Below, in pieces: positions 10,027 through 28,843 of a DNA stretch of 64,000 bases (position 1 is its first letter; every line of letters begins with the position of its first letter). The notes beneath the pieces were generated by a model. The model saw only the letters and a program-made list of their open reading frames with translations. It was not told where the DNA came from and did no database searches. The stretch is taken from the NCBI GenBank assembly GCA_002706205.1, contig PAKC01000068.1, positions 21,259 to 85,258 on the forward strand. The letters are read 5' to 3'. This DNA is from Halobacteriovoraceae bacterium (GTDB lineage Bacteria; Bdellovibrionota; Bacteriovoracia; Bacteriovoracales; Bacteriovoracaceae). A program made the translations under genes and the position numbers.

Positions 10027-10604
10027 AAATTTTTCTCTGCTTTGTTAGCAATAAGTTGCTCTATACGAGGGTGCACATATTGAGAAACTTTCTCTCCCAA
10101 TAAGGCCAACTCCCTTACAATGGTTGAACTAATAGTTGCATAGTGAGGCTTAGTAAACATGCAAATCGTTTCAATATTTTTACTAATCCCACGATTCCCA
10201 ACTGAAAGTTCAAATTCAAGTTGGTAGTCTGAACTACTTCGTAAGCCACGAATTAAAAAACTGGCCCCAACATCTTTAGCAAACCTTGCCGTACTTCCTT
10301 CGATGACTTCAAGCTTCACATTATCTAATTTATAATGTTCTAAATAAATCTGCATCATTTCTAATTTATCATCTTCAGAAAAAAGTGACTTTTTCTTTGA
10401 ATTTTTAGCAATAATCCAATAGACCTTTTTGAATTTTTTAGCGGCTCTCATCATAATATCAGCATGTCCCCATGTCGGAGGGTCTGCACTAATGGCATAG
10501 ACTGCAATCGCCTGTGCACTCATTTTTCTATAGGCTTGTTCTAAAATTTTTTCATCTACTTCAACTTGACTAAAGTACTGCTTTTTCCAACTAGGGTAAT
10601 CCAT
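10023..10604 (-). CDS. coaD: phosphopantetheine adenylyltransferase
   Basis: Nucleotidyltransferase block PPTWGH (T/HxGH). Also LIRGLRSSSDYQLEFELS and ISSTIVRE, which are typical of CoaD. It carries an N-terminal extension of about 30 aa. Confidence 0.75.
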   Translation of the reverse strand: MDYPSWKKQYFSQVEVDEKILEQAYRKMSAQAIAVYAISADPPTWGHADIMMRAAKKFKKVYWIIAKNSKKKSLFSEDDKLEMMQIYLEHYKLDNVKLEVIEGSTARFAKDVGASFLIRGLRSSSDYQLEFELSVGNRGISKNIETICMFTKPHYATISSTIVRELALLGEKVSQYVHPRIEQLIANKAEKNL

Positions 10605-10680
10605 GTTTGCCTCTTAGTTTAAAGATATCTTCAGTTTTATTTTAAACATAAATTAACTTAAAGACCAACTTAAGACAGTT

Positions 10681-13492: not shown

Positions 13493-15094
13493 ATGCAACT
13501 ACATTTTCTTGATTGGACAATTATCATCCTATACCTGATCGGTATGATTGGTCTAAGTTTTTTTCTGGCAAAAGGCCAAAAAAACAAAAAAGACTATTAT
13601 CTTGGTGGAAATAATACAGGAGCCTGGCCAATTGCCATTTCAACGATGGCCACTCAATGTTCTACAAACTCAATTCTTGGAGCTCCCGCCTTTGTTGCTT
13701 TTTCCATCGGTGGAGGGATGCTTTGGTTACAATATGAGTTGGCCGTACCTTTTGCCATGATCTTTCTTATGATCTTTTTACTTCCACTCTATAGAAAATT
13801 AGGGATTATTTCTGTCTATGCTTATTTAGAAAAGCGTTTTGATAAAAAAACAAGACTAAGCCTTTCTTTGTTATTTCAATTTATAAGGGCCTTTGCTACC
13901 GGTGTTACTGTCTATGGAATATCAATTGTGATTGCCTATTGCACTGGAATCAGCTTCACACTGGCCGTTATCATGTTAGGTGTTATCACCATTATTTATG
14001 ACTCTATTGGAGGGATGAAAGCAGTTATTTATTCAGATGTTATTCAAATGATCATTCTTTATCTTGCTATCTTTATAACTATATTTGTCGCAATTTCTCT
14101 TTGTGGAGGTTTTTCAGAAACACTTGCCAGCTTTTCCTCACAAAGAATGCGGGCGATAGATTTTAGTTCAGCTGGTTTTGATGGAAATAGTTTTACCTTT
14201 CTTCCTATGCTTATTGGAGGTTTTTTTCTCTATGTCTCATATTATGGTTGTGACCAATCACAAGTACAAAGAGAACTCTCAACGAAAAGTGTTGATGATA
14301 CGAATAAGGCCTTATTTCTTAATGGTATATTGCGTTTTCCTTTGGTTTTAACCTATTGCTTTTTAGGCATATGCATTGGGGCTTATGTTGCAAAACACCC
14401 TGAGTTTATAAAGCTTCTTCCGCTAGAAAATGGTAACCCAAACTATAATTTATCAGTTCCTGTTTTTGTCATCAAATACTTTCCAATTGGAGCCGTCGGC
14501 TTGGTCATGGTAGGACTTTTCTCAGCTGCAATGTCCTCACTCGACTCTACTATAAACTCTTTATCCGCAACAACAATGCAAGATGTTTTTAAAAGTTATC
14601 TCCAAAAAGATTTTTCTGAAAAACAAGAACTTCTTGCTTCCAAAGCCCTCACTATCTTCTGGGGTTCTGTTTGTACTTTTTTTGCTTTTTATGTTGGAAA
14701 TATTTCGGACTCCATTATTGTTTCTATGAATAAAATTGGCTCTTTGGCCAATGGGCCTATCTTAGGAGTTTTTCTACTGGGAATTTTAACTCAAAAAGTC
14801 AATGGCACAGGGGCCATTACAGGACTGGTTTTGGGCTTTATGACTAATGTTATCTTTTGGGTATTTATTCCAGATGTTAGCTGGCCATGGTGGAATGTTA
14901 TAGGCTGCCTTATTTGCTTTGGAATTGGATACCTTAGCACTATATTCAAAACCGAAACAAAAGAAGTAGAACAATACACCTTTAAACACTTCCAAAAAAA
15001 CTCTAAAGATATTTTTAAAACTGATTGGAAAAAATACTATTACATACTTGCAATCTGGGGCCTATTTATCTTTACTCTCTGTCTACTCTTTTAA
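13493..15094 (+). CDS. sodium:solute symporter (SSS) family transporter
   Basis: About 13 predicted TM segments. The N-terminus FLDWTIIILYLIGMIGLSF and the overall layout are typical of SSS permeases. Confidence 0.75.
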   Translation: MQLHFLDWTIIILYLIGMIGLSFFLAKGQKNKKDYYLGGNNTGAWPIAISTMATQCSTNSILGAPAFVAFSIGGGMLWLQYELAVPFAMIFLMIFLLPLYRKLGIISVYAYLEKRFDKKTRLSLSLLFQFIRAFATGVTVYGISIVIAYCTGISFTLAVIMLGVITIIYDSIGGMKAVIYSDVIQMIILYLAIFITIFVAISLCGGFSETLASFSSQRMRAIDFSSAGFDGNSFTFLPMLIGGFFLYVSYYGCDQSQVQRELSTKSVDDTNKALFLNGILRFPLVLTYCFLGICIGAYVAKHPEFIKLLPLENGNPNYNLSVPVFVIKYFPIGAVGLVMVGLFSAAMSSLDSTINSLSATTMQDVFKSYLQKDFSEKQELLASKALTIFWGSVCTFFAFYVGNISDSIIVSMNKIGSLANGPILGVFLLGILTQKVNGTGAITGLVLGFMTNVIFWVFIPDVSWPWWNVIGCLICFGIGYLSTIFKTETKEVEQYTFKHFQKNSKDIFKTDWKKYYYILAIWGLFIFTLCLLF

Positions 15095-16812
15095 TAGCAA
15101 TCAATTAAAGGAAGCTGCTGACAAACCTTGGGAGATTTATCTAAGTTTCCATACAAAGTAATATTTAAATAATTTTTCACATTATAAAGCGAATTAAAGT
15201 CAACGATTTGATTTTCTGAAACATCTATATAATTGAGTTTTTCTAACGTTTCAATTCCATCTAAGCTCTCTAATTTATTATTTGAAATATATAAAGACTC
15301 AAGCTTGCTCATTTGACTTAGACCAGAGAGGTCTTTTAAATTATTATAATCAAGATATAATAAAGTAAACTCATGATATTCTTTAATAAGATTTAAATTT
15401 TCTAACCCCATCCCACTCAAATTCAATGACGTCATTGACTTCAGTCCAATATGAAGTTGTAAACAATCCTCTTTGCCTTGAATAAGTCTAACTTCATCTA
15501 TAACTTCTTGCGTGCTGACTGGTTCATTTTCATAATTCATACAAGCTTGAAAAAAATGAGTTTTAAAATGATTATGCTTTTGCTTCTTTCTTCCAATTAA
15601 CTTGTTGGCCTTAATTTCACTTATCTGTGCCAAAGAAATATTATTTCCTGTAATATCCAGTTCAGCAAAAGAATGAGTTTTTGTAAGAGCAGAAATATCT
15701 TGAATTTGGTTATCGCTGAGGTCTAATTTTGTAAGAGAAGAAAAAAACTTTAAAAGTTTCACATCTACTAAAAACTCATTGCTTAAATTAAGCTGCTGAA
15801 CTTTCTTTCTGATCAAATCTAATTGCCTACAACTTGTCACATTTAAATTTCGAAACAAAGCCTCAACCGTAAGTCGAGTTTTTCCCTGCGCCATCAAACA
15901 AGCATCGAGAAACGATTGATCATCTTGAGAAGATATTTGTTGTGAACAAATAAACTCAAAATCACCTATACTCACTCCTGTCTTTGACTTAACCCAACAC
16001 AGACTATCTGGAATCAAACTATAATAAGTTAAAGATTCTTCTCCAGCACATTTTCCCTTAACACGGCTTGCCGCACCGATCAAATAAGCTTGATTATCTA
16101 TATGAACAAGAGCAGGCCCCCCACTATCACCTTGGCAAGCTCCTTTACCACTTTTATTTAAAACAATTTCATTGGCATAAACTTCTACCAAAGGCATTTG
16201 AGTTTTATACTTAACTCCCACTTTTTTTTCAATATCACCCAGTTGACCAAAAACATTCTTTCGATGTCCAAAACCAATAATTTCAACCTGCTTACCAACC
16301 TGGAGTGCTGCTTTTAAATCAGAAACTGATGTCAATAAAGCTAATGGTTTTAAAAAAAGTATTGGTTTTTTGAGTTCAATTAAGGCCAGATCATTTTTTC
16401 CACGATAATGATTTCGATAAGCAGGATGCGTAAAAATATTCGCAATTTCATACTGTCCCTTAAATAGACCCTCTTCCTCTCCTGTACCAATATAAATTTT
16501 AGTTTCTAAAATAAACTCTTCCATGCTTTTAAACTGCTGAGGTAACTCAACCGGAAGTATACAATGGGCCGCTGTAAGAATATATTGTGAATCAATAAGA
16601 CTTCCAGAACATAAAACCTTCCCCTTATAAGTTATCGCAACGACTGAATGATATTCAGGACTTACAACCTTCTGTCCACCAATGATGGAAGAAACCACTG
16701 TTTTAAAAGGTGGTAATTGTGACTTTTCTTCCATAGAGCAGCTTAAAAAAAAGAAGAAAAAAATAAGAAAACTAAATTTTTGCATAAAACCCTTACATAA
16801 TGTGAAAAGCAT
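15091..16812 (-). CDS. trypsin-like (S1) serine protease fused to a C-terminal leucine-rich-repeat domain; probable lipoprotein
   Basis: Catalytic blocks LTAAHC, NDLALIEL and GDSGGP. The C-terminal half carries repeated LxxLxLxxNxIxD units, for example LDLSDNQIQDISAL and LYISNNKLESLDGI. Lipobox FFLSC. A likely alternative start is Met10 at 16785. Confidence 0.8.
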   Translation of the reverse strand: MLFTLCKGFMQKFSFLIFFFFFLSCSMEEKSQLPPFKTVVSSIIGGQKVVSPEYHSVVAITYKGKVLCSGSLIDSQYILTAAHCILPVELPQQFKSMEEFILETKIYIGTGEEEGLFKGQYEIANIFTHPAYRNHYRGKNDLALIELKKPILFLKPLALLTSVSDLKAALQVGKQVEIIGFGHRKNVFGQLGDIEKKVGVKYKTQMPLVEVYANEIVLNKSGKGACQGDSGGPALVHIDNQAYLIGAASRVKGKCAGEESLTYYSLIPDSLCWVKSKTGVSIGDFEFICSQQISSQDDQSFLDACLMAQGKTRLTVEALFRNLNVTSCRQLDLIRKKVQQLNLSNEFLVDVKLLKFFSSLTKLDLSDNQIQDISALTKTHSFAELDITGNNISLAQISEIKANKLIGRKKQKHNHFKTHFFQACMNYENEPVSTQEVIDEVRLIQGKEDCLQLHIGLKSMTSLNLSGMGLENLNLIKEYHEFTLLYLDYNNLKDLSGLSQMSKLESLYISNNKLESLDGIETLEKLNYIDVSENQIVDFNSLYNVKNYLNITLYGNLDKSPKVCQQLPLIDCY

Positions 16813-16926: not shown

Positions 16927-18696
16927 ATGACTGTGAAACAGGACAAAACAACCTTAGTGGATATCTTATTTAAAAACCACTCCGTGCATGATCATTTCAT
17001 CAGCTTTCTTTTAGCTAATGGGCAAAAAGTGGATTTCCAACGCGAGCTAATTAAACAAAAATCTACCCATCTTGCGACAAAAATTAAAAGTGTCGCAGCT
17101 GATGAAAATATTCTTTTGGAAGGAAGTAATTCCCTAGACTTTATTATTCATTTTTTTGCTATCATTTTAAGTGGCAATACACCTGTGCCGGTCACCACAA
17201 GTTTATGGATCAATGAAAAACGTTATCAAGAAACTATAAAAAGTATCAAAGAAACAACAAAGGCAAAAATTATTTTAGGAAGTAAACTAGATAAAGGCCT
17301 TCACAGTAAACTAGGTTTAAAAACCTATAATTATAATGACTGGGAAGAAATTCCGGCCATAAATAAGGACTTATCATTTCCTAATCCTACTGATACTGCT
17401 TTTATTCAATTCTCCTCAGGCAGTACTGGTAATCCCAAAGGAGTTGTTCTTTCCCATTACAATGTCATCGCCAATATCAAACAGATTACTGAAGCCATTG
17501 ATAATAAAGAATTAGGAAATACTGTTCTCTCTTGGCTTCCAGTACATCATGATATGGGTCTTATCGGAGGCTTGCTCGTTCCCTTATATAATCAATATAA
17601 AGTTTATATCATGACTCCTTATGACTTCGCGGTTAATCCTGCAAGATGGCTCAAGGCCATCTCCCAATATAAGGCGAACATCATTGTGGGGCCAAACTCT
17701 GCATATAATATGACAGCAAAAAAGGTAAAACAAAAAACCAAAGAAAGTCTTAATTTATCATCGGTAAGAATCGCTTTATGTGGAGCAGAGCCAATAAATG
17801 CCCAAACTCTTGATTTCTTCTATCGAGAGTTTAAGCAGTGTGGCCTTCAAAAAGAAGCTTTTGTTCCCTGTTACGGAATGGCAGAAAACACACTTGCCAT
17901 CAGCTTTCATCAAGGCGGTACCGCTTTTAAAACTGAAAAGATCTCTAAAAGATCTATGCTTTCTTTAGGAGTCGCGACAGCTTGTGAAGGAGATGATTGT
18001 TTAGAATATGTCTCTTGTGGTCAGCCCCTTAACCATGTTGATATTAAAATTGTGGATAACGATGGCCAAACTTTACCAGAAAGACATGTGGGAAATATTC
18101 TTGTCAAAAGTCCTTCTACAACCCAAGGCTATTACCAAAGAGACGATTTAAATAAAGATCTCTTTCATAATGGATATTTAAAAACAGGCGACCTTGGCTA
18201 TATAAGCAACAAAGAAATTTTTGTCACGGGTAGAAAAAAAGATCTTATTATTGTCAATGGCATTAATATCAACGCCGAGGAGATTGAGGCTTACGCAATT
18301 CGCATGAAAGAAATTAAGCCTGGTAGACTCGCTGCTTTTGCTCTTAAAGATAGTAAAACTGATAGTGAAAAAATCCACTTAGTGATAGAAACACGTCGAG
18401 AATACCAATACTTACTTCCTAGAAAAAGAAAACAGCTACAAAAAAAGGTATCAGATACAATATCAAATTTTTTTCCTATAAAAGAAGAGCAAGTTTCTAT
18501 TGTCCCCCCAGGTAGTATCAAAAAAACAACTTCAGGCAAGGTTCAACGCTCTAAAATGAAACAATTATTTCTTAATGGGAAATTAAAATCAGAAAATTTT
18601 ATTCTCAATTTTTTTCTAGGCCAGATGCGTGAGAATCAAATAAAACTCAAAGTCTTCATAACAGGATTAAAGCCACGAAATTTTAAGGGAGCTTAA
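16927..18696 (+). CDS. fatty acyl-AMP ligase (FAAL, FadD32-like ANL enzyme)
   Basis: FSSGSTGNPKGVVLSHYN, YGMAENT, TGDLGY, GRKKDLIIVNGINI and TSGKVQRS blocks. GGAG RBS 8 nt upstream. Confidence 0.8.
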   Translation: MTVKQDKTTLVDILFKNHSVHDHFISFLLANGQKVDFQRELIKQKSTHLATKIKSVAADENILLEGSNSLDFIIHFFAIILSGNTPVPVTTSLWINEKRYQETIKSIKETTKAKIILGSKLDKGLHSKLGLKTYNYNDWEEIPAINKDLSFPNPTDTAFIQFSSGSTGNPKGVVLSHYNVIANIKQITEAIDNKELGNTVLSWLPVHHDMGLIGGLLVPLYNQYKVYIMTPYDFAVNPARWLKAISQYKANIIVGPNSAYNMTAKKVKQKTKESLNLSSVRIALCGAEPINAQTLDFFYREFKQCGLQKEAFVPCYGMAENTLAISFHQGGTAFKTEKISKRSMLSLGVATACEGDDCLEYVSCGQPLNHVDIKIVDNDGQTLPERHVGNILVKSPSTTQGYYQRDDLNKDLFHNGYLKTGDLGYISNKEIFVTGRKKDLIIVNGININAEEIEAYAIRMKEIKPGRLAAFALKDSKTDSEKIHLVIETRREYQYLLPRKRKQLQKKVSDTISNFFPIKEEQVSIVPPGSIKKTTSGKVQRSKMKQLFLNGKLKSENFILNFFLGQMRENQIKLKVFITGLKPRNFKGA

Positions 18697-20274
18697 ATGT
18701 CACAAAACAATCTTGTTACAGATTTTCTTTATCACGTGAATAATTCTCCAGATAAGATTGCCTTTGTTATTCCTGAAAATATAGACAGCCTAAATGATTA
18801 TAAAGAAAAGCTAATCACTTTTTCTCACTTCTATGAGATAGTCGCCAAATATCGCAAAGGCTTAAAAAATGAGGGCTATGTCAAAGGAGATAGAATTATC
18901 ATCCTAGCTCCAATTAATGAAAAAACATATGCATTAATGCTTGCCATATTTTCACTGGGAATGGTGGTTGTCTTTCTCGACCCAGGAATTGGGTTAAAAA
19001 AAATACTTAGAGCAATCTCAGACTCAAAAGCTAAAGCGATTATAAGTGTTGATAAACTTCTTAAGTATCACTTTTTATTTCCGTCGTTATGGAAAAAAAC
19101 AAAATACACAATTGATCAAAATAGGATTGGCCTTAAACAAGAAAACACTCTTTATGCAAAAGAGTATGACAAAATCATTGCTGAAAAAATGCAACCAGAT
19201 GATTACGCTCTTATGACCTATACCTCTGGTTCTACAGGAAAAAGCAAAGGCACAAATAGAAATATTGAAAATATAACAAAACAAATCAATTTTATAAAAA
19301 AAGCCTGGCCATGCCATGAGACAACTATTGATTTTCCCTCCTTCCCTATGTTTGGTCTTATGAATCTTTTGTGTGGGATAACAACAGTTGTTCCAGCAGT
19401 TAATTTTTCAAATATAGGAAGTTTTAACCCGGAAGTTGTCATTAAACAGATGGAAAGATGGAATATTACTCGTATGTGTGGCTCCTATGCTTTTCACAAT
19501 AAACTCGTGAAAAAATTAAAAGAAAAAAATAAAAAAATAAAGAGTTTAAAAAATATTGCATTTGGAGGATGTCCGGTCACCGAGGAATTCTGCCAAGGTC
19601 TTTTCGAGATTTATCCAAATGCAAAAACGGAAATCATTTATGGTTCAACTGAAGTAGCTCCAATTTCAAGTATTGAAATTAATGAGTTTCTTGCTGCAAA
19701 AGGAGATGGTTTTTTGGTCGGTCATATTTATCCCGGTCTTCAAGTCAAAGTCGTAAAACTCCCTCAAAAGATATATGAATTTGATCATCAAGATGGCAAA
19801 CAATATGAAATGGGCACTAACTCAATTGGAGAAGTCATTATTCAAGGGCCACATGTTGTCCAAGAATATATTGATAACCCGCAGGCAACAAAAGAAAACA
19901 AAATAAAATCTCCGACAGGAAAAAAATGGCATAGAAGTGGAGATTGTGGCTATTTTGATAACGAGGGAAGACTTTGGCTTGTAGGAAGGATAAATGATAT
20001 TATTTGGTCTGCCCAAAAAGAACTTCATCCTTATTCAATTGAAGCCCAACTCGATAAGTTACAAGGAATTCAAAGAAGTGCTCTTGTTCAAAAAGGAAAA
20101 GAAATTAAACTTTTTATTGAAGGACAGCTCAATACAAAAAATCAACCGCTACTAAAACAATTGCTTCAAAAAAATAATTTAGAAAAAGTGAAGCTCCAAT
20201 CCATCACGAAGATACCCGTTGATGATAGGCATAACTCAAAAATAGACCGGGTAAAATTGAGAGGAATGATATAA
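18697..20274 (+). CDS. ANL-superfamily adenylating enzyme with OleC-like C-terminal signature
   Basis: TYTSGSTGKSKG, YGSTE, SGDCGYFD and GRINDII blocks. The C-terminus reads PVDDRHNSKIDRVKL instead of the usual SGKxxR. Confidence 0.75.
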   Translation: MSQNNLVTDFLYHVNNSPDKIAFVIPENIDSLNDYKEKLITFSHFYEIVAKYRKGLKNEGYVKGDRIIILAPINEKTYALMLAIFSLGMVVVFLDPGIGLKKILRAISDSKAKAIISVDKLLKYHFLFPSLWKKTKYTIDQNRIGLKQENTLYAKEYDKIIAEKMQPDDYALMTYTSGSTGKSKGTNRNIENITKQINFIKKAWPCHETTIDFPSFPMFGLMNLLCGITTVVPAVNFSNIGSFNPEVVIKQMERWNITRMCGSYAFHNKLVKKLKEKNKKIKSLKNIAFGGCPVTEEFCQGLFEIYPNAKTEIIYGSTEVAPISSIEINEFLAAKGDGFLVGHIYPGLQVKVVKLPQKIYEFDHQDGKQYEMGTNSIGEVIIQGPHVVQEYIDNPQATKENKIKSPTGKKWHRSGDCGYFDNEGRLWLVGRINDIIWSAQKELHPYSIEAQLDKLQGIQRSALVQKGKEIKLFIEGQLNTKNQPLLKQLLQKNNLEKVKLQSITKIPVDDRHNSKIDRVKLRGMI

Positions 20275-21296
20275 TGACCGTTAGTGGAAAGTATCATTAC
20301 TTATATCAAAAAAGCTATGGAGTTAAGATTGCTCAAATTGATGACTTTTTACCCGATGGGATAACCACTAATGAGGATATCATTACCCAAAACCAATTAC
20401 GCCTAAAAGATGAATGGGTCCAAAAAAGTATTGGGATTAGGCAAAGACATTGGTGTAAAAATGGAGAGACGGCCTCAGATTTAGGTGCGAAAGCTTTGAG
20501 AAAGGTTCTTCCCAGTAAGAGTTCACTTGAAGGTTTGATTGTTTCAACTGTATCAGAAGATGTGATGACCCCCTCAACTGCTTGTATCATTCAATCCAAA
20601 GCAACTCCCGGAGAACTTTATCCAGCCTTTGATATAAAAGCGGCCTGTGCGGGCTTTATTTTTGCTCTGGATATGGGAAGAAGAATGATACAGACTGGCG
20701 CTAAAAAAATAGCCTGTGTCGCCACAGAAACACGCAGCTATTATCTAGACAAAAAAGACAGAAGAACGGTTATGCTTTTTGGAGACGGGGCAGCGGCGGT
20801 TATTTTAGAAAAAACACAAAAGGATGAAATTGGAATTTTTTACTCCCATCTTATCAGTGATGGACGTTTTTGGGATGCTATCTTTGTTCCGGCCAGTGGT
20901 GGCCTTATTCAAGCACGCAACGAAGCTCCCAAAAATTCGATTGTTATGAATGATGCAAGTGGAATTTTTGATTCCGCCATACTAAAAATGCAAGAGCTCA
21001 TAAATAATGCTCTCACAGAGTGTAAGCTTACAAAAAATGACATTGATCACTTTATCATTCATCAGGCCAGCAAAAATATCGTTGCAAAAGTAGCAGACGA
21101 GCTAAAACTCGACCCATCCCAATTTACAATTAACTTTGATCAAGTAGGTAATATCACCTCAGCCTCAGTAGGAGTCCTTCTTTCACAATGCCTCAAAGAA
21201 AAAAGAATAAAAAAGGGAGACCTCATCTGTCTTATAGCAACAGGAGGAGGCTATAGCGCAGGAATCATCTTGCTAAGATGGGAGCAAGATTTATGA
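20274..21296 (+). CDS. KASIII/FabH-type thiolase-fold condensing enzyme
   Basis: Cys block AACAGF, His block HQASKN and Asn block GNITSAS in FabH order and spacing. Confidence 0.8.
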   Translation: MTVSGKYHYLYQKSYGVKIAQIDDFLPDGITTNEDIITQNQLRLKDEWVQKSIGIRQRHWCKNGETASDLGAKALRKVLPSKSSLEGLIVSTVSEDVMTPSTACIIQSKATPGELYPAFDIKAACAGFIFALDMGRRMIQTGAKKIACVATETRSYYLDKKDRRTVMLFGDGAAAVILEKTQKDEIGIFYSHLISDGRFWDAIFVPASGGLIQARNEAPKNSIVMNDASGIFDSAILKMQELINNALTECKLTKNDIDHFIIHQASKNIVAKVADELKLDPSQFTINFDQVGNITSASVGVLLSQCLKEKRIKKGDLICLIATGGGYSAGIILLRWEQDL

Positions 21297-21973
21297 AAAA
21301 TAATATATTAATCACAGCAGGACTCACAGGTATAGGAAAAGAAATATCAAAACTTTTGGCCGGTAATGGCTTCAATACCTACCATACAACCTCACGAATA
21401 GATCAGGTAGATGAACAAACTTTTTACTGGAATATGAAAGATTTAAATTCAAGTAAAGACCTGATCACACAACTTAAAAATAAAAATATTCATATCGATG
21501 GTCTTATCCATTGTGCACATATTTTTAGTCCGGCCCAACCCATCTTTGGTATTAATTCTAAAACTTTCAGTGAATCATTACTCACAAACATTCTTCCCTG
21601 CTTTGAACTTTCCAAAGGACTTGCAAAATTAATGGCCAGAAGAAATTATGGAAGAATTATTTTTATTGGTAGCATGGCCGCAATTAAAGGAAGTCCTGGA
21701 AAACTTAGCTATATTGTTGAAAAAAATGCTCTGAACGGACTGGCAGTAGCTTTTAATAGTGAACTTAAAGAAAAAAATGTTCTTACAAAAATTTTACACC
21801 CTGGCCTCACTGATACCGAACAGATCCGAAAGCGACTCAAACAAGAGATTTTAGATATTATAGGTGAAGATAACTTACTATCTCCACTGGATGTGGCCAA
21901 TAAAGTCCATTATTTGTTAAAAAATTCTGAACAACAAACAATATTTCATATGGGAGATGAACAATCATGGTAA
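21293..21973 (+). CDS. classical short-chain dehydrogenase/reductase
   Basis: I prefer ATG 21293 (ATGA overlap with the fabH-like stop) to 21278. Cofactor loop ITAGLTGIGKE and catalytic S...YIVEK. Confidence 0.75.
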   Translation: MKNNILITAGLTGIGKEISKLLAGNGFNTYHTTSRIDQVDEQTFYWNMKDLNSSKDLITQLKNKNIHIDGLIHCAHIFSPAQPIFGINSKTFSESLLTNILPCFELSKGLAKLMARRNYGRIIFIGSMAAIKGSPGKLSYIVEKNALNGLAVAFNSELKEKNVLTKILHPGLTDTEQIRKRLKQEILDIIGEDNLLSPLDVANKVHYLLKNSEQQTIFHMGDEQSW

Positions 21974-22740
21974 ATACTTTTTTCATTCCCCCTATGGGCC
22001 ATTTATCTAGTTTTTATCAAGACTATATTCAACAATATAATTCTCATTATTACTTTCTTGACTATCCTTTATCAAAACAAGAACAATTGACCGGTGCAAG
22101 TTGTTTGATTAAAAATGCAGACTACTTTGCCCAGAAGATCCAACAAATTAATCAAAAAACAAATCAAAATGAGTTTATGATCATAGGCGTTTCACTTGGC
22201 GCGACACTAAGTCTTAAAATAAATGAAAAGTTGAATAATACAGCAAATAAACTCATCTTAATTGCTCCAGGAGGAATTAAAGTTACAAGAGCGAGAAAAG
22301 AGCTGATCAAACAAACTCTTAACGAGCTAAACTGTATGGATTTTATTACCAAAGTCTTGGGTTTAACCTCCTCTGACTTTTTAAAATCAAATTTTTGTCA
22401 ACATTTCTCAGTCACCACTCCCACCTCCCAAGAGTACTATCAAAAACTATACTCATTTTGGAAAAATAATAATCATCTTAAAACTCAAGAAAATTTTAAA
22501 AGTCTTGTGATTGATGCCCTTGATGTTAACTATGAAGAATTACTTGAAAGATATCAAGACAAAATTCATATTATCTGGAGTGAAAAAGATAAGGTTTTTT
22601 CTTCAAGACATCTTAAAAGATTTCAACATCTTTGCCAAAAGTCAATTTTTTCAATTTATCCTAATTATGGGCATTATCTCCCCTTAGAAGCTCCAGAAGA
22701 GTTAAATAAAATTGTGAGGTCTTATGTTTGCCATCTTTGA
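21967..22740 (+). CDS. alpha/beta-fold serine hydrolase
   Basis: Nucleophile elbow GVSLG and C-terminal His block YPNYGHYLPLEAPE. Confidence 0.65.
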   Translation: MVNTFFIPPMGHLSSFYQDYIQQYNSHYYFLDYPLSKQEQLTGASCLIKNADYFAQKIQQINQKTNQNEFMIIGVSLGATLSLKINEKLNNTANKLILIAPGGIKVTRARKELIKQTLNELNCMDFITKVLGLTSSDFLKSNFCQHFSVTTPTSQEYYQKLYSFWKNNNHLKTQENFKSLVIDALDVNYEELLERYQDKIHIIWSEKDKVFSSRHLKRFQHLCQKSIFSIYPNYGHYLPLEAPEELNKIVRSYVCHL

Positions 22741-23539
22741 CCTCCTATTTATCATAACAACCCTTATACTACATACAACAAGCTTATATTTAAGTTATAT
22801 AGTAGTTATTCCTTTATGGTCACAAAGTCTTTTTTTTAATGTCTTCACAATTATCCTTGGTTATTTTTTATTTTTACATTTTTTCACTCTACAAACAGGT
22901 CTTCTCAGACTGCTTTTCCAACCAAAATTAAAAGAAGGAAGTTTTTCTATCGGATTGAATAAAGGTTATGTGGGTTGGGTGCTTAATTCACTCATTCAAG
23001 GTGTATTTATTTCCTCACCCTTTGCTCAGCAATGTTTATTCATTTTTTATCTCAAATGGGCATATTATCGACTTATGGGGATGAAGGTTTCGTTTAAAAG
23101 TTTAATTGGAATGCATACAATAATACGCCAAGCAGAACTTATTGAAATCGGAAAAAAAACTGTCATAGGTCTAGGAGCAGCTCTGAGCTGCCATTATTCT
23201 CCTAGCTCTAAAATTCATATTCAAAGATCTGTAAAAATTGGTGACAATTGTGTTATTGGGGGATTTGCGATTGTAGGAGCTGGCTCCAGCATCGGAAATA
23301 ATACTGTCATCGGGGCAAAGACAAATCTTCTACCTAATGTTTCACTTGGAAACAACGTCAAAATTGGTGGAAATTGTAATATCAACTTTGGAGTGGCCAT
23401 CCCCGACAATGTAAAAATAAAAAGTCATACAGTCATTACCAAAAATGATCAAATCAACTCTGGAGAAATATGGGCAGGTCATCCTGCAAAAAAAGTAGGT
23501 CTCATTGAAGACATAAAAGGAGTAAAAAATGATATTTGA
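22724..23539 (+). CDS. membrane-anchored hexapeptide-repeat (left-handed beta-helix) acyltransferase
   Basis: Hydrophobic N-terminal half with several TM helices. The C-terminal half carries tandem hexapeptide repeats IGDNCVIGGFAIVGAGSSIGNNTVIGAKTNLLPNVSLGNNVKIGGN. Confidence 0.7.
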   Translation: MFAIFDLLFIITTLILHTTSLYLSYIVVIPLWSQSLFFNVFTIILGYFLFLHFFTLQTGLLRLLFQPKLKEGSFSIGLNKGYVGWVLNSLIQGVFISSPFAQQCLFIFYLKWAYYRLMGMKVSFKSLIGMHTIIRQAELIEIGKKTVIGLGAALSCHYSPSSKIHIQRSVKIGDNCVIGGFAIVGAGSSIGNNTVIGAKTNLLPNVSLGNNVKIGGNCNINFGVAIPDNVKIKSHTVITKNDQINSGEIWAGHPAKKVGLIEDIKGVKNDI

Positions 23540-24194
23540 AGATCAAATGAAAGCGGCACTAAAAGAATCAATTACCGTTATTGAAAAGACACAATTTTAT
23601 CAAGATATAATCAATGGGAAAAATGGCAAAAAGTATTATATTAAATATTTAGAGTACGCTTATCATTACGTAACTTTAACATCTTCATTTACTCCTTTAG
23701 CTGCAAGAAGAATGGATCCAAAATATTTAAGGATTAGAAAATGGATTTTAGAACATTCAAGTGAAGAGATGGGACATGAGTTAATGGCCTTAAACGACTT
23801 AAAAAAATTAGGTAAAGCAGAAAATGAAATTACATCTCAGTCTCCTCCTCTAGGTGTCACATGTTGGGTGAGCTATTTTCATTATCAAGTGGCCATTGCA
23901 AACCCCTTTAACGCATTTGGAGTGCTCTACTTTTTAGAAGGAATGGCCACAGACCTAGCACCAAAACTTGTACCTAAAATTATAGATTCACTTGATGACA
24001 AAGAAAAAAAAGCTATTACTTTTTTTCGTGAACATGGTGATCTAGATGAAGATCATCTGGCCGAGCAAGAAGCAATTCTTTTTAAAGCAGACTTAGATAA
24101 AATACAACAAGATTCAATTATTAAAACTGTTCAAGAAGCAGCACAAATAAAAAAGTTTATGCTAGACCAACTTGTTTTGGAATTTAATCAATAA
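23529..24194 (+). CDS. heme-oxygenase-like fold, putative diiron 'iron-containing redox enzyme' family protein
   Basis: All-helical and about 220 aa. Carboxylate/His ligand-like blocks HSSEEMGHE, YFLEGMA and REHGDLDEDH lie on separate helices. Confidence 0.55.
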   Translation: MIFEDQMKAALKESITVIEKTQFYQDIINGKNGKKYYIKYLEYAYHYVTLTSSFTPLAARRMDPKYLRIRKWILEHSSEEMGHELMALNDLKKLGKAENEITSQSPPLGVTCWVSYFHYQVAIANPFNAFGVLYFLEGMATDLAPKLVPKIIDSLDDKEKKAITFFREHGDLDEDHLAEQEAILFKADLDKIQQDSIIKTVQEAAQIKKFMLDQLVLEFNQ

Positions 24195-24204
24195 GGAGAA
24201 TCAG

Positions 24205-24432
24205 ATGGCAACTCAACAAGAAATTATCGGCCTTATTTCAGAAATCACAGGAGTTTCTCAAGAAGAAATAAAAATGACTGATGAATTCAAATCAGACTTA
24301 AAAATGGATTCCATTGCGATTGTGGATCTCATTTCTTCGTTAGAAGAGGACTTCGACGTTATTATTGAAATGGAAAAAGCCATGACCATTAAAAATGTTC
24401 AGCAACTCATAGATGAAATAAACTCTAATTAA
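24205..24432 (+). CDS. acyl carrier protein
   Basis: ATG 24205 with an AAGGAG RBS; the track start at 24172 lies inside the upstream gene. Phosphopantetheine site LKMDSIAIVDL. 75 aa and acidic. Confidence 0.8.
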   Translation: MATQQEIIGLISEITGVSQEEIKMTDEFKSDLKMDSIAIVDLISSLEEDFDVIIEMEKAMTIKNVQQLIDEINSN

Positions 24433-26137
24433 GTATAAGAAGCTCTGCCCCAGTCTTAACGAGATCATTTTCTTGAAATAAAACAGAAAGAACTTTCGCT
24501 GACTTCTTTGCTTTGATTTCAACGGTTGTTTTCATCGCTTCAAGAACAAAAAGGAGGTCACCTTGCTCCACTTGCTCTCCCTCAGCAACAAGAATCTTAA
24601 TCACTTTCCCGGTAATGGGAGAAGTATAATCATTATTTTTTTCTAAAAAAGACTCTCGCCAAAACTGACGTGCCACACAGAAGTTTAGAATGGCACCATC
24701 CACAATTTTCTCCACATAAAAATTTTGTGATCTAGCAAGAACTTTATATTGATGGCGATGAATCTCAACCAGACTCATATCAAAAAAGTCCTCTCCCCTT
24801 TCCTTTTTACCCCACAAATAACTCTTAATTTCTTCATCATCAATAATCGGCTTTATAAGTTCATATTTTTGTCCTTCAAGCCAACTTACATTATGTTCTT
24901 GAGCTATAAAGACATCATGTTTTGCTAATTCCAACAAGAAACCTTTATTCGTATGGATACCAAAGATTGTTAATTCTTTAAGCCCTCTACAAAGATTATC
25001 AAGTGCATCCTGACGAGTCTTTCCAACAACAACTAACTTCCCAATCAAGGGATCATATTGATGAGCAACAATACCGTTTTCGTTTAAAAAGGTGTCAAAA
25101 CGGTAATCATCATTATTTTTCATATAACAAATTTCTCCAGGACATGGAGAAAAATCCATAAACGGATTCACGGCATAAATTCTTGCACTAAAACTATGAC
25201 CACGGCTTTTGACGTCTTTCAACTGAAATTGATTTAACGCTAATTCAAACTGCCACTGAACCAAGTTTATATCATACAACATTTCTGTAACAGTATGCTC
25301 GACTTGAATTCTTGTATTTACTTCTAAAAAATACAATTCTTCTTTCTCTTCATCCCATAGGAATTCAATAGTTCCAGCTCCAAGATACCCGTAATTCATC
25401 AACGTTGTTTTAATTTTCGGGTAAAGCTCTCCCATTTTTTTGTTTGCATTTTCCTGAGCAGGGCCTTCTTCTAAAACTTTTTGGTAATTTAGTTGGAGTG
25501 AACAATCACGTGTCCCCAAAAAGATAACATCGTCCTGAGTCGCAAAAAATTGTAATTCAACATGCTTAGCAAAAGGAAGATAACGCTCATAAATAATCTC
25601 TGAATTATCAAAAAGCTGTTGGGACTTTTTTTTAAGTTCACTCTCAGCATTTATTAATTTTGAAATATCTTCAACGACTTTGTTTCCTCGCCCACCTCCT
25701 CCAAAACTTGCCTTTAACATAAGCGGGAAATCTTTTGCTTGAGGCCTTTGTACCTCTAAAACACCTAAAGAACATTTCTTAGCAAAGATTTGTGATTCCT
25801 TTTTACTTGCAAGTTTTTCTAGACTAAGCGTAGAGGGTCCCACAAAAATGACGCCGTTTTCTTCGCAAAGCTTTGCAAGTCTAGGATCTTCAGACAAAAA
25901 GCCATATCCAGGATAGAGTACCTCAATCTCATATTTTTTGAGCACATGGTTAATAAAGTCTAAATTAACATAAGGATTGTCTTGTTCAGAAACAGAAATA
26001 AAATGATCAGCTTGTTGAGTAATCTTTGTCTCTAATTCGTTCTCGTTTACAAAACAATAACTTGTCAGCTCAAGGTTTTGACAAACTTTGATCGCCCGAA
26101 AAGCAATTTCTCCACGATTAAGAACTAAAACATTCAT
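24425..26137 (-). CDS. biotin carboxylase fused to a biotin carboxyl carrier domain (BC-BCCP)
   Basis: ATP-grasp glycine loop KASFGGGGRGNKVV with BC-length N and C domains. C-terminal biotinyl motif LEAMKTTVEI. Confidence 0.85.
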   Translation of the reverse strand: MNVLVLNRGEIAFRAIKVCQNLELTSYCFVNENELETKITQQADHFISVSEQDNPYVNLDFINHVLKKYEIEVLYPGYGFLSEDPRLAKLCEENGVIFVGPSTLSLEKLASKKESQIFAKKCSLGVLEVQRPQAKDFPLMLKASFGGGGRGNKVVEDISKLINAESELKKKSQQLFDNSEIIYERYLPFAKHVELQFFATQDDVIFLGTRDCSLQLNYQKVLEEGPAQENANKKMGELYPKIKTTLMNYGYLGAGTIEFLWDEEKEELYFLEVNTRIQVEHTVTEMLYDINLVQWQFELALNQFQLKDVKSRGHSFSARIYAVNPFMDFSPCPGEICYMKNNDDYRFDTFLNENGIVAHQYDPLIGKLVVVGKTRQDALDNLCRGLKELTIFGIHTNKGFLLELAKHDVFIAQEHNVSWLEGQKYELIKPIIDDEEIKSYLWGKKERGEDFFDMSLVEIHRHQYKVLARSQNFYVEKIVDGAILNFCVARQFWRESFLEKNNDYTSPITGKVIKILVAEGEQVEQGDLLFVLEAMKTTVEIKAKKSAKVLSVLFQENDLVKTGAELLILN

Positions 26138-27714
26138 TCATTTACCTCTATATCAAAGTGGGAGATCATTTTATGAGATAAAAAATTCTTAAAAAAAGAA
26201 GCCGAGTAATGATAAGAATTTTTTTCTTCAAAAATTATTGATAGAATATATTCTAAGCTAGATTCCTGACTAAGCTGACCATAAACCTTATTATTTTTCA
26301 AAAAAAGATAATAAGAAACTGCAGACACAAGTCTACAATAGTCTAAAGCCAATTTCCGATTTTGATAGTCATCTTTATGATCAAGGCCATCTAAACTTTC
26401 TAGAAACTTTAAACGATATTTTTCAATCTTTTGCACTCCCTTATTTTGTTTATTAGAAGTTCTTAAAAAACTTGAAAAAAGAAAATCTTTATTCCGAGCA
26501 GAAAGCTTTAATCGCTTAAAATCAAACTCAGGGAGTTTTTCATTCACATTCAAAATACTTTGGTCATAAATTTCTTCACTGGTAATATGATGTTTTATAT
26601 TATTAAACTTACTTGCAATAATTGATAAATTAACCCCTACACTTCCATCAAAAAGAGAGACAACAGCATGATCTCTTAAAAATTTTTGAAAGAGCGGATA
26701 ATCATTTTCTCTTAAATAGTATCGGGCCCCCATAATTTCAGAGCAAATTTTAATCTGTTGATCAATAAGAGGCGGAATATAGGCTTTAATAACCGCACTG
26801 TAGAGACTTAAAAACTCAGGTTGTACTGTCCCCACACGAGAAACCACACAGCTTAAGGCTTCACAGGCCATGATTCTAGCAAATGACTCAGACAGCAAAC
26901 ATAAAATCCTTTTATCATCAATCAAGTTTTTACCGTACAAAACTCTCCTATTTACAAAATCTAAAGTATTTCTAAATGTCGTATCTGCAGCCCCCAAAGA
27001 AAAGCTTGCGCATAATGTTCTTGAAACATGCATGGTTTTAGCCACAATTTCTAATCCTCTTGCCTGCCTTCCCACAAAAGCTTCTTCTTTAAGTGGAAGA
27101 TCAGAAAAAATAATACCACTAATATCAGCTCCCCTGATTCCATGAGTCTTAATCTTATTGATATAAGAAAAAAACTTATCAGAAATATCATCCTTTTTAA
27201 CAAAAAAAAGAGTCGGTCCTTGTTTTGTCATTGCTAAAACAGTTAATGCTTTTCCTTTCGTCGCATTATTAATACACCATTTTGTGCCAGATAAGACTTC
27301 TTTCTCTTGATCATAAAAAACTTCTGTGGCACTTAAATCACTACCATGTTTTTCCTCTGTCAAAGCCAAGCAGTTTGCACCAGAATTGCTAAGAATTTTG
27401 GCCAGAGCTTCTTTTTGCTCTTGAGTTCCGGCCAACCAAACAGGGATTGATCCTAAAAAAGATTGGCCAATTGCAATAGCTGAAGTTAAATTTCTTCTTG
27501 CTAAAACACGACCTAAACAAAAAGTTTGATAAGGATGCTCAAACCTCCCCTTAAATTCACTCGGGATAAAATAAGATAAAATATTTTGCTGAAAATAATA
27601 CGACATCTCACTTGGAAATTGGCTTTGTTCATCATCTTCATAGATAACGTCTATAAATTCTGACCTTCTTTTTAAAAGTTTTTCAAACTTAGCAATCTCT
27701 ATTTTCATAACCAC
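26134..27714 (-). CDS. acyl-CoA/acyl-ACP dehydrogenase-like flavoprotein (atypical)
   Basis: ACAD blocks TEEKHGSDL, GTKWCINN and GRQARGLEIV. The C-terminal motif RDHAVVSLFDGSVGVNLSIIA aligns to the RD....YEGT....IIA block of MCAD. Confidence 0.7.
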   Translation of the reverse strand: MVMKIEIAKFEKLLKRRSEFIDVIYEDDEQSQFPSEMSYYFQQNILSYFIPSEFKGRFEHPYQTFCLGRVLARRNLTSAIAIGQSFLGSIPVWLAGTQEQKEALAKILSNSGANCLALTEEKHGSDLSATEVFYDQEKEVLSGTKWCINNATKGKALTVLAMTKQGPTLFFVKKDDISDKFFSYINKIKTHGIRGADISGIIFSDLPLKEEAFVGRQARGLEIVAKTMHVSRTLCASFSLGAADTTFRNTLDFVNRRVLYGKNLIDDKRILCLLSESFARIMACEALSCVVSRVGTVQPEFLSLYSAVIKAYIPPLIDQQIKICSEIMGARYYLRENDYPLFQKFLRDHAVVSLFDGSVGVNLSIIASKFNNIKHHITSEEIYDQSILNVNEKLPEFDFKRLKLSARNKDFLFSSFLRTSNKQNKGVQKIEKYRLKFLESLDGLDHKDDYQNRKLALDYCRLVSAVSYYLFLKNNKVYGQLSQESSLEYILSIIFEEKNSYHYSASFFKNFLSHKMISHFDIEVNE

Positions 27715-28601
27715 TTCTTTGTTATTTTAAATGTTTGTTTTAACAAAAGTTCCCACATATCTTTGCGCCTTCCGCCCAGATGCGGAGTTATGAAGACATT
27801 TTCAAGTTCATTTAACTTTCCTTCTTTGGGATAAGGTTCAGGATAAGTCACATCTGTTAGATAAACTGCGGTCTCATTTTTTTCAAAAAAGTTTTCAAGT
27901 TCTTGAGTATCAAATAACTCTCCACGAGCAATATTAACCACACAGATATCTTTCTTTATTTTTTTAAAAAATTTGTCTTGGGTAAAAAGATCTCTTGTTT
28001 CTTGACTCAAAGGGACTGCAATAAATAAGTAATCAACTTTTTCCAAAAAATTCTGATAATGATCTAAGTCATAATAAGTTGTAAAGTCAATTTTAGAGCG
28101 TGAACAACAAATAATCTCACCAAATAAGTTTTGCGTTAGTTTAAAAATTTCGGTCCCAATATGACCTCCTCCCAAAATACCAGCAATTTTTTGCTGTGGA
28201 TTATCTGCTATAAAATAACCCTCTTCACAAAACTCTGACGGAGCAATCTCTCCTCTAATGGCCTTCATCACAAGATAAAGAGCATGTTCGGCCACTGAAC
28301 GAGAATTTACACCACTTGATGAAGTCACTTGAAATTTTTGTACTTCTTGCCATGAAACAGGAATTTGTGCCGTCCAAAAATGCACGGCCTTAAGCTTATC
28401 ATTTTTTTGCACCATTCTTAAAGAAAAAGGCATTCCAACAATATAGTCGGCATCAAGTAATTTTTTTCTTGCTCCTTTTGTCTCTAAAACATAATCAACT
28501 TCAAAAAAGTTATGAAATTGCTGAGTTAGCTCTTGTCTACATGTAGCTGAAAGTTTCCAAAATCCTTCATCAATTGGATTATAAATAACAAGTCTCTTCA
28601 T
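27705..28601 (-). CDS. D-isomer-specific 2-hydroxyacid dehydrogenase family, NAD-binding
   Basis: Rossmann loop GILGGGHIGTEI, NIARGELFD and ITPHLGG blocks. Confidence 0.75.
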   Translation of the reverse strand: MKRLVIYNPIDEGFWKLSATCRQELTQQFHNFFEVDYVLETKGARKKLLDADYIVGMPFSLRMVQKNDKLKAVHFWTAQIPVSWQEVQKFQVTSSSGVNSRSVAEHALYLVMKAIRGEIAPSEFCEEGYFIADNPQQKIAGILGGGHIGTEIFKLTQNLFGEIICCSRSKIDFTTYYDLDHYQNFLEKVDYLFIAVPLSQETRDLFTQDKFFKKIKKDICVVNIARGELFDTQELENFFEKNETAVYLTDVTYPEPYPKEGKLNELENVFITPHLGGRRKDMWELLLKQTFKITKKWL

Positions 28602-28843
28602 TTCATATTCTCATTAATATACTTTAAGACATCTGAAACCTTATTCCACTGCTCTAAAATGTCTTCATCATCATCAGTCTCTAACTCATCAGTTATTTCA
28701 TAAAAGAGAGTCACTTTTGCCAGTGAATCCAATCCCAAGTTTTCTCTTAGTAAATCACCTTGGTTAATATCCGATATATTCTTCTTTAAAAATATATCTT
28801 CAGTTTGAGTCAAAATTCTTTTTAACAAATCTAATTCTTTCAT
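28598..28843 (-). CDS. acyl carrier protein (second copy)
   Basis: 81 aa and acidic, with phosphopantetheine site LGLDSLAKV. Confidence 0.75.
   Translation of the reverse strand: MKELDLLKRILTQTEDIFLKKNISDINQGDLLRENLGLDSLAKVTLFYEITDELETDDDEDILEQWNKVSDVLKYINENMK

Follow-up and report, generated by a model that had tools for sequence, protein, structure and literature searches.

The question addressed here is whether four consecutive genes of a Halobacteriovoraceae bacterium form a self-contained replica of the OleABCD enzyme set, which makes olefins by way of beta-lactones, as was proposed in the initial annotation of contig PAKC01000068.1. The genes lie at positions 18697 to 22740 of the 64,000-nucleotide stretch analysed in this study (hereafter the window), which has a G+C content of about 34%. 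The first of them encodes an adenylating enzyme of the OleC superfamily (ANL). Sequence comparison indicates that this ANL is an OleC paralog belonging to a sister clade and not an OleC ortholog. The four genes were not found to stand alone, being part of an 18-gene cluster with a fatty acyl-AMP ligase (FAAL), two ACPs, a carboxylase, an ACAD, a heme-oxygenase-like diiron oxidase (HDO), a left-handed beta-helix (LbH) acyltransferase, a GH3 ligase and exporters. The whole is an orphan lipid cluster of type II, into which an OleC paralog has been recruited.

The four open reading frames (ORFs) were confirmed as described earlier, and their folds were assigned by Pfam and NCBIfam as AMP-binding, ACP_syn_III, adh_short and Abhydrolase_1. 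The 525-aa ANL (18697-20274, + strand) was assigned from its C-terminal motif, NCBIfam matches and a neighbour-joining (NJ) tree, and the 340-aa FabH-type KASIII (20274-21296, +) from NF006829, PDB matches and alignment. These are followed by a 226-aa classical FabG-like SDR ketoreductase (21293-21973, +; adh_short and FabG-type NCBIfam matches) and a 257-aa lidded alpha/beta hydrolase (ABH; 21967-22740, +; Pfam Abhydrolase_1 and an invariant triad). The longest ORF of the SDR begins at 21278; its true start is likely the ATG at 21293, which overlaps the KASIII stop as ATGA and gives the 226-aa protein. The overlapping junctions noticed previously are seen as TAATG between ANL and KASIII (1-nt overlap), ATGA between KASIII and SDR and ATGGTAA between SDR and ABH (7-nt overlap), and the genes are translationally coupled. 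The ANL sequence is identical to the deposited MAX67268.1 and MDP7319446.1 from Bacteriovoracaceae/Halobacteriovoraceae metagenome-assembled genomes.

The C-terminal motif and the family position of the ANL

The ANL ends in ...KIPVDDRHNSKIDRVKLRGMI (the end is also written ...IPVDDRHNSKIDRVKL), and its motif, PVDDRHNSKIDR, has a single occurrence when the window is translated in all six frames. The motif presents the A10 variant P-x-D-x-R-H-N-[SA]-K-I-x-R, whereas the neighbouring FAAL has the canonical A10 TTSGKVQR; the RHN triplet before the A10 lysine is not found in thioester-forming ANLs such as this FAAL. Among 120 matches, all the full-length homologues were found to carry P-[VML]-D-x-R-H-[NH]-[SA]-K, including proteins named as olefin beta-lactone synthetases by JGI. 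A scan of 185,579 species genomes (one genome per species), seeded with the C-terminal motif and the YGSTE (A5) motif of the family, gave at least 599 matching stretches, and among the matches listed 579 of the 599 encode relatives of the ANL. Further, both NCBIfam OleC models align to residues 10-521 of the ANL. Homologue conservation, the genome scan and this alignment up to residue 521 show that the earlier reading of the motif was right at the family level: the motif genuinely marks the ANL family to which OleC belongs, and this family has two clades. The R, H, N and K of the motif are present in all 19 OleC defined by genomic context and in all members of the clade of the window, in agreement with the expected enrichment in OleC. 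As a hallmark of OleC-type enzymes alone the motif did not hold, because it is also common in the sister clade, where the N of the RHN triplet is found in 63% of the sequences. No OleC-family structure was found in the PDB search; the best matches are generic ANLs (75 bits or less), and none of the solved ANL structures aligned beyond residue 467.

The 80 best genome loci were sorted into types by their neighbour genes. Type A (19 loci) has the canonical OleA-OleB-OleC-OleD arrangement, frequently preceded by a Pfa synthase. Type B (about 30 of the 80) contains UbiA, HMG-CoA reductase (often kinase-fused), a PPDK/Rph-like phosphotransferase, DUF3419, a 350-384-aa protein and the ANL, which is often followed by, or fused to, a CDP-alcohol phosphatidyltransferase/CarS-like protein, or is followed by an MMPL exporter. 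Type C is the arrangement of the window and was found, among these loci, only in Bacteriovoracaceae. An NJ tree (distance-based) was constructed for 75 sequences, with OleC defined by genomic context and model scores in place of characterised OleC, LstC and NltC sequences, and its bootstraps used capped distances and unrooted splits. In this tree types A and B form separate clades and type C is nested in B, type C being monophyletic in 100/100 bootstraps. The comparison with OleC which the initial annotation had called for hence places the ANL outside the clade of these context-defined OleC (100/100 bootstraps).

The profile scores were also analysed. With NF045786 and NF045785, the NCBIfam OleC models (cut-offs of 900 and 850 bits), the ANL obtained 209.7 and 188.6 bits; these are its next-best NCBIfam matches after NF006754 (PRK09274), which is the top match with 423.5 bits over residues 3-522, under the cut-off of 478. 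Even the OleC from canonical OleA-B-C-D loci obtained 489-758 bits on the OleC models and stayed under the strict cut-offs, while type-B proteins obtained 178-227 bits and a type-C ortholog 208/184. On NF006754, canonical-context OleC (the ANLs of our loci L048, L053 and L062) reached 622-727 bits, above its cut-off. NF006754 thus serves as an umbrella model that takes in canonical-context OleC as well, and for this reason its name ('fatty acid CoA ligase family protein') carries no functional weight. As it scores OleC above its cut-off while the strict OleC models miss them, many real OleC are probably annotated as CoA ligases.

The closest relatives of the ANL are the type-B proteins, which share 31-37% identity and the same motif with it and often lie beside an MMPL exporter; their partner genes, on the other hand, do not include KASIII, SDR, HDO or ACP. 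This uncharacterised sister clade accounts for about 30 of the 80 best loci and is spread over many phyla. Type-B clusters were observed at L001, L005, L008, L009, L015, L028, L030, L032, L034, L051, L075 and others, with the ANL at about 10001-11600 of the locus; the kinase fused to HMG-CoA reductase is APH/EcKL, DUF3419 is BtaA-like and ANL-CarS fusions occur. The hosts include Photorhabdus, Kosakonia, Oleispira, Bdellovibrio, Acidobacteriota, Planctomycetota and Bacteroidia. For the Photorhabdus homologue (P0065), an identity with IocS, a putative lactonising enzyme encoded in the ioc/leu cluster (PMC9177418), was considered and rejected, since P0065 lies in a UbiA/HMGR/PPDK-like/CDP-alcohol-transferase cluster and not beside leu genes. 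All three contexts are held by Bdellovibrionota, with canonical OleABCD in Bacteriovorax sp. LF-bin-166 (L062), the UbiA/PPDK-like type in Bdellovibrio sp. HCB117 (L030) and a Halobacteriovoraceae genome (L058), and the third type in the window, which suggests that the paralogs are old and coexist in the phylum.

The condensing enzyme, reductase and hydrolase compared with OleA, OleD and OleB

The KASIII, to which the role of OleA had been given, was found to be closer to FabH. It passes the cut-off of NF006829 (264.9 bits against 249) and stays under that of the stricter TIGR00747 (245.9 bits against 292.1). In the PDB it matches E. coli FabH with 161.7 bits compared to about 76 bits for X. 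campestris OleA, and it obtained 135 bits on an OleA profile. It was aligned with 12 OleA from canonical loci, an E. coli FabH sequence serving as numbering ruler only, and its AACAGF, HQAS and GNITSAS segments align with C112, H244 and N274 of the Cys-His-Asn triad of FabH. At the position of E. coli FabH Phe87 and OleA Glu117, all 12 OleA have Glu (EP[SA]T/V motif), whereas the window KASIII and those of the related loci L002 and L003 have Thr. This Glu comes from the partner subunit (X. campestris E117, LstB E60, NltB E57), deprotonates the second acyl chain and is required for head-to-head condensation (bioRxiv 10.1101/856955). By its FabH-like scores together with the Thr in place of the OleA Glu, the KASIII is a decarboxylating FabH-type enzyme, probably for long primers. 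In M. tuberculosis FabH, which accepts long chains, a Thr at the Phe87 position opens the acyl pocket.

The reductase and the hydrolase are also non-orthologous to their Ole counterparts, as was expected. The SDR scores 91.8 bits with Pfam adh_short, has the motifs AGLTGIG and S...YIVEK and obtained only 0.6 bits on a profile of 19 context-defined OleD, in keeping with a classical SDR and not the 3beta-HSD type of OleD. In the hydrolase, the nucleophile elbow is G-V-S-L-G (IIGVSLGAT), and Ser76, Asp208 and His236 are invariant in the orthologs; the nucleophile is thus the serine of a GxSxG motif and not the Asp of dehalogenase type. On the OleB profile only its C-terminal 65 residues gave a match, of 21.7 bits, while (V/I)VHDWGG is present in 9 of 11 context-defined OleB. 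Its AF2 model (pLDDT 87.7) resembles about 1000 similar lidded hydrolases with TM scores of 0.63-0.75, and these fold matches (dehalogenase III, KAI2/D14/RsbQ, BioH, esterases) do not tell thioesterase, esterase and acyltransferase apart, all three being candidate functions for the modelled protein. The Ser-Asp-His triad without OleB features goes against the assignment of this hydrolase as an olefin-forming decarboxylase, and decarboxylation to an olefin is consequently left without a candidate enzyme. Homologues of OleA, OleB and OleD were found neither in the window cluster nor in six orthologous loci. KASIII, ketoreductase and hydrolase could plausibly yield a beta-hydroxy acid.

These comparisons make it very improbable that the four genes are a complete functional OleABCD replica in which the ABH would give the final long-chain olefin or ring-opened product. 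Such a replica would account for the operon, in which the junctions overlap and an OleC-family ANL adjoins genes for a condensing enzyme, a reductase and an alpha/beta hydrolase. However, the KASIII lacks the Glu needed for non-decarboxylative head-to-head condensation (present in 12/12 OleA; bioRxiv 10.1101/856955), and the ABH has a Ser nucleophile with just the 21.7-bit C-terminal likeness to OleB, of which 9/11 have HDWGG. Moreover, an extra ANL gene lies between ANL and KASIII in most relatives, the module is present without the ANL in two loci (L089 and L090), and the OleC of the canonical OleABCD set in Bacteriovorax sp. LF-bin-166 shares only 28% identity with the window ANL. In comparison to OleC and OleABCD of Xanthomonas and Shewanella, the ANL shares the family, the A10 variant and the full-length alignment to the OleC models, and it would likewise act on the product of a thiolase-fold condensation and reduction. 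It differs in its clade (26-30% identity) and in its distinct hinge/A8. The window has a classical SDR for the 3beta-HSD type, Ser for the OleB Asp and no OleA Glu, and its ANL is embedded among FAAL, ACP, HDO and carboxylase genes.

The 18-gene cluster and its conservation in relatives

The cluster spans about 20 kb (16927-37319 for the listed genes). FAAL, ANL, KASIII, SDR, ABH, LbH, HDO and ACP1 constitute one translationally coupled operon, which opens with the 589-aa FAAL (16927-18696, +; NCBIfam NF006624 with 387.7 bits, FadD32-like matches and the A10 TTSGKVQR). The FAAL gene abuts the ANL gene (TAAATG) and was found upstream of the ANL in 5 of 6 compared related loci. After the ABH comes a membrane-anchored hexapeptide acyltransferase of LbH fold (271 aa, 22724-23539, +; Pfam Hexapep), which matches NCBIfam LpxD-like models and the Pls/PosA NRPS terminal domain (54 bits), has hydrophobic N-terminal segments (residues 1-60) and shares 49-57% identity with its relatives. 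The HDO (221 aa, 23529-24194, +; Pfam PF14518, 51.7 bits) has the seven-helix HO-like fold and the complete E-x-x-H, E, H-x3-D-x2-H ligand set, with E80, H83, E137, H169, D173 and H176 invariant. The operon closes with ACP1 (75 aa, 24205-24432, +; Pfam PP-binding, 48.3 bits), the ATG of which at 24205 is preceded by a ribosome-binding site, AAGGAG.

The convergent operon, on the - strand, contains ten genes. These encode a biotin carboxylase-BCCP fusion (BC-BCCP; 570 aa, 24425-26137; Pfam Biotin_carb_N, CPSase_L_D2, Biotin_carb_C and Biotin_lipoyl, with NCBIfam support), an ACAD-like flavoprotein with a C-terminal extension (526 aa, 26134-27714; Pfam Acyl-CoA_dh_M and Acyl-CoA_dh_1, ACAD matches in the PDB up to 86 bits), a D-isomer-specific 2-hydroxyacid dehydrogenase (298 aa, 27705-28601; Pfam 2-Hacid_dh_C with 106 bits, and NCBIfam) and ACP2 (81 aa, 28598-28843; weak NCBIfam ACP matches of 28 bits, orthologs with weak PP-binding). 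The PccB-like acyl-CoA carboxylase carboxyltransferase (458 aa, 28851-30227; Pfam Carboxyl_trans, 278.6 bits) is followed by a GH3-family ATP-dependent ligase (OlsH-like, 517 aa, 30220-31773; Pfam GH3 N, M and C domains) and a 418-aa protein (31781-33037) without any Pfam or NCBIfam match, which travels with the LolA-like gene: its ortholog, with 29% identity, adjoins that gene in L003/L088. The remaining genes are those of a LolA-like/DUF1329 lipid-carrier lipoprotein (254 aa, 33039-33803; Pfam LolA_like, 190 bits), an MMPL/HAE3 RND lipid exporter (754 aa, 33860-36124; Pfam MMPL, NCBIfam HAE3 with 221 and HpnN-like with 138 bits) and an MFS transporter (402 aa, 36111-37319; Pfam MFS_1). The genes of ACP1 (stop at 24432) and BC-BCCP (stop at 24425) converge with an 8-nt overlap (24425-24432), so that a terminator could not fit between the two operons. 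The promoter and terminator scans of the window remained at background level and an Rfam scan of the whole window gave no match.

In the PDB, the carboxyltransferase matched the propionyl-CoA carboxylase beta subunits (PccB/AccD5) with 247/208 bits in comparison to 174 bits for AccD4. An AccD4-like enzyme was ruled out by these scores (PccB 247 against AccD4 174 bits), hence a short (methyl)malonyl extender is more likely than a mycolate-like branch with a long alpha-alkyl chain.

The organisation of the cluster recurs in six other distinct loci of Halobacteriovoraceae/Bacteriovoracaceae, where the ANL identity is 43-60% and the order is ANL-[extra ANL]-KASIII-SDR-ABH-LbH-HDO-ACP. HDO (53-70%, the highest in the cluster) and KASIII (50-66%) are the best-conserved proteins. 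Among cultured bacteria, Bacteriovorax sp. DB6_IX and Seq25_V possess the cluster. The extra gene, found between ANL and KASIII in most relatives and absent from the window and L003/L088, encodes an AmcH-like short ANL ('ANL3'). The 2-hydroxyacid dehydrogenase and ACP2 are absent from L003/L088, and the FAAL from L086/L091. MMPL lies beside the cluster in every related locus of these families whose sequence reaches far enough, and MFS is paired with it in L002, L003/L088 and L085. Two high-GC loci (70-73%) were found via the HDO, namely L089 (HDO at 10001-10687) and L090 (HDO at 10001-10717). They contain the AmcH-like ANL3-KASIII-SDR-ABH-HDO-ACP along with carboxylase, ACAD, 2-hydroxyacid dehydrogenase, LbH and FAAL. 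The absence of the OleC-like ANL from both loci is at odds with the framing of the genes as an Ole replica, and it suggests that the ANL is a lineage-specific addition to an older KASIII-ketoreductase-hydrolase-HDO-ACP module. This older and wider module is centred on the HDO. The conserved set of diiron HDO, KASIII and two ACPs is an orphan with respect to its product.

The GH3 gene is present in the window, in L088 and in L085 (8 kb away there), and L091 and L092, both complete clusters, lack it; it is accessory to the cluster. Inside the cluster it was observed only where ANL3 is absent (window, L088), which suggests that GH3 and the AmcH-like ANL3 may be interchangeable. Its sole NCBIfam match is the lyso-ornithine-lipid synthetase OlsH (NF052613), with 149.3 bits. 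In the OlsH/OlsI ornithine-lipid pathway a GH3-family ATP-dependent ligase uses a 3-hydroxy fatty acid (PMC12493201), and the window cluster, where a 3-hydroxy fatty acid is likewise expected to be central, also encodes a GH3 ligase and an enzyme of alpha/beta fold. The product could accordingly be an acyloxyacyl amino lipid, for which KASIII and ketoreductase would supply the 3-hydroxy fatty acid, GH3 would N-acylate an amino acid, ABH or LbH would add the piggy-back chain and the ANL would activate one fatty acid. The OlsH match speaks for it, as do a weak match of the ABH to the O-acyltransferase OlsI (26.9 bits, E 3e-6), the consumption of free 3-hydroxy fatty acid and ATP by the OlsH/OlsI pathway (PMC12493201) and the exporters, which would suit a membrane lipid. 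However, the GH3 score is far under the OlsH cut-off of 620, the gene is accessory, and the marginal OlsI match is no better than those to unrelated hydrolases, while HDO, ACAD, carboxylase, ACP2 and 2-hydroxyacid dehydrogenase are left unexplained. Such a product is therefore improbable for the cluster as a whole, and an ornithine-lipid-like pathway is conceivable only as an accessory branch, itself an improbable one.

A proposed pathway and the reaction of the ANL

On balance, we lean towards the cluster being a pathway for an exported 3-hydroxy-fatty-acid lipid. In the proposed sequence, FAAL would load a fatty acid onto ACP1, and KASIII, with Thr for the pocket-closing Phe87 of E. coli FabH, would carry out one decarboxylative Claisen extension of the acyl chain, for which the carboxylase of the cluster itself would supply the malonyl or methylmalonyl unit. 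The ketoreductase would then give a 3-hydroxyacyl-ACP. No dehydratase (DH) or enoyl reductase (ER) gene is present among the 18 genes, so the 3-hydroxyl would be retained. The Ser hydrolase and/or the LbH transferase may take the chain off the carrier, after which the OleC-family ANL would re-activate the free carboxylate of the 3-hydroxy intermediate by adenylation. The HDO would oxidise the product at some step, and the LolA-like/MMPL machinery is predicted to export it to the envelope.

For the ANL, intramolecular capture of the acyl-AMP by the 3-hydroxyl, giving a beta-lactone as with OleC, is suggested by the family relationship and is placed first here, as a tentative possibility. The formation of a thioester with CoA or a carrier protein is an equally tentative one, and the formation of an ester or amide with another acceptor appears rather unlikely. 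In favour of lactonisation, the sole biochemically characterised members of the ANL family are the beta-lactone synthetases OleC and NltC (bioRxiv 10.1101/856955). Moreover, the RHN triplet is conserved, the operon is predicted to make a 3-hydroxy acid and loading enzymes are present: as loading is covered by FAAL (together with ANL3 in the relatives, and GH3), the OleC-like ANL is not obviously needed for priming.

The thioester possibility corresponds to the ANL being an ordinary ligase with no lactone formed, which would either make acyl-CoA for PccB-like/BC-BCCP and ACAD (as extender or starter) or load ACP2 in replacement of the missing ANL3. The hinge Asp and the P..IE of A8 look canonical and unlike those of OleC, and the cluster contains CoA-type enzymes without any other dedicated CoA ligase. 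The window, like L003/L088, lacks ANL3 and yet retains ACP2 and the 2-hydroxyacid dehydrogenase. Further, the sister-clade ANL usually lies near an HMG-CoA-reductase-type thioester reductase, and the NCBI family is named 'fatty acid CoA ligase family protein', although this name is uninformative as NF006754 also captures canonical-context OleC (622-727 bits). The RHN triplet, conserved in OleC and in the clade of the window and absent from FAAL-like thioester-forming ANLs, points the other way. FAAL, ANL3 and the OleC-like ANL coexist in most relatives, which argues that the latter is not simply an ACP2 loader. In the A8 glycine/lysine columns a hairpin Gly is present in most sequences, with no clean rule separating thioester chemistry, and the hinge-Asp difference between the window ANL and OleC is weak evidence.

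Several results weigh against the 3-hydroxy-lipid pathway and the role given in it to the ANL. All 19 context-defined OleC are split from the clade of the window in 100/100 bootstraps, and in 80/100 type C is joined to type-B sequences of gamma-proteobacteria and to myxococcal ones. The sister clade has no characterised member, and its context (UbiA, HMG-CoA reductase, PPDK-like, DUF3419 and CDP-alcohol transferase) fits a reductase-feeding CoA ligase equally well. The hinge/A8 of the window ANL (GRINDII...HPYSIE) resembles that of domain-alternating ANLs and is unlike that of OleC (CGRKSHRV...CE). In L089 and L090 the KASIII-SDR-ABH-HDO-ACP module is kept without the OleC-like ANL, so these enzymes do not depend on it, and as the window lacks the ANL3 present in most relatives, the OleC-like ANL or GH3 might have taken over carrier loading.

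By homology the closest known system is OleC, at the family level only; by logic it is the lipstatin/nocardiolactone clusters for the outcome and mycolate condensation for the design. In the lipstatin and nocardiolactone clusters (LstABCD, NltABCD) the OleC-type enzyme leaves a beta-lactone and not an olefin, which is the outcome predicted by lactonisation here. In these clusters, on the other hand, the condensing enzymes are still of OleA type and have the essential Glu, and the reductase is of OleD type (bioRxiv 10.1101/856955). The window cluster would resemble mycolate biosynthesis, by analogy, in a FAAL-primed carrier, a carboxylase-supplied extender, one decarboxylative Claisen condensation and ketoreduction to a retained 3-hydroxy acid. 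The mycolic-acid condensation system comprises the FAAL FadD32, Pks13, the carboxyltransferase AccD4 and the reductase CmrA, whereas the window has discrete type-II parts (FabH-type KASIII and free ACPs) in place of Pks13, and a PccB/AccD5-like carboxyltransferase. The AF2 model of the HDO (pLDDT 96) is nearest to 3dde (of unknown function), CADD (TM 0.82-0.85) and UndA (TM 0.78-0.81). It shares with CADD and UndA the fold and a complete six-ligand diiron site, but is just 13-22% identical to them. UndA acts on medium-chain and 3-hydroxy fatty acids.

A more specific proposal, somewhat more doubtful than lactonisation as such, is that the sister-clade ANL is a beta-lactone synthetase acting on 3-hydroxy (possibly 2-methyl-branched) acids from a FAAL-primed FabH/FabG/thioesterase line in place of OleA/OleD, as a second and convergent route to beta-lactones of lipids, the product being exported through LolA-like/MMPL by marine predatory bacteria as a serine-hydrolase-inhibiting weapon or an envelope lipid. 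If this is true, the ANL would be the first beta-lactone synthetase of the OleC family to work outside the OleA/OleD framework. It would also point to new beta-lactone lipids of the lipstatin kind in predatory bacteria, a group whose natural products have hardly been explored. By extension, if the ANL lactonises, lactone formation would be expected throughout the large OleC sister clade, which spans many phyla; if the ANL is only a CoA or ACP ligase, the locus would be an ordinary orphan lipid cluster. Literature searches on PRK09274, DUF3419, Halobacteriovorax biosynthetic gene clusters, clusters with HDO and KASIII, and OleC mutagenesis yielded no description of this cluster or of its ANL's sister clade.

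Immediately upstream, a 573-aa protein adjoining the cluster (15091-16812, - strand) was observed with a signal-peptide-like N-terminus, a trypsin-family protease domain and C-terminal leucine-rich repeats, and it could be a secreted predation factor.

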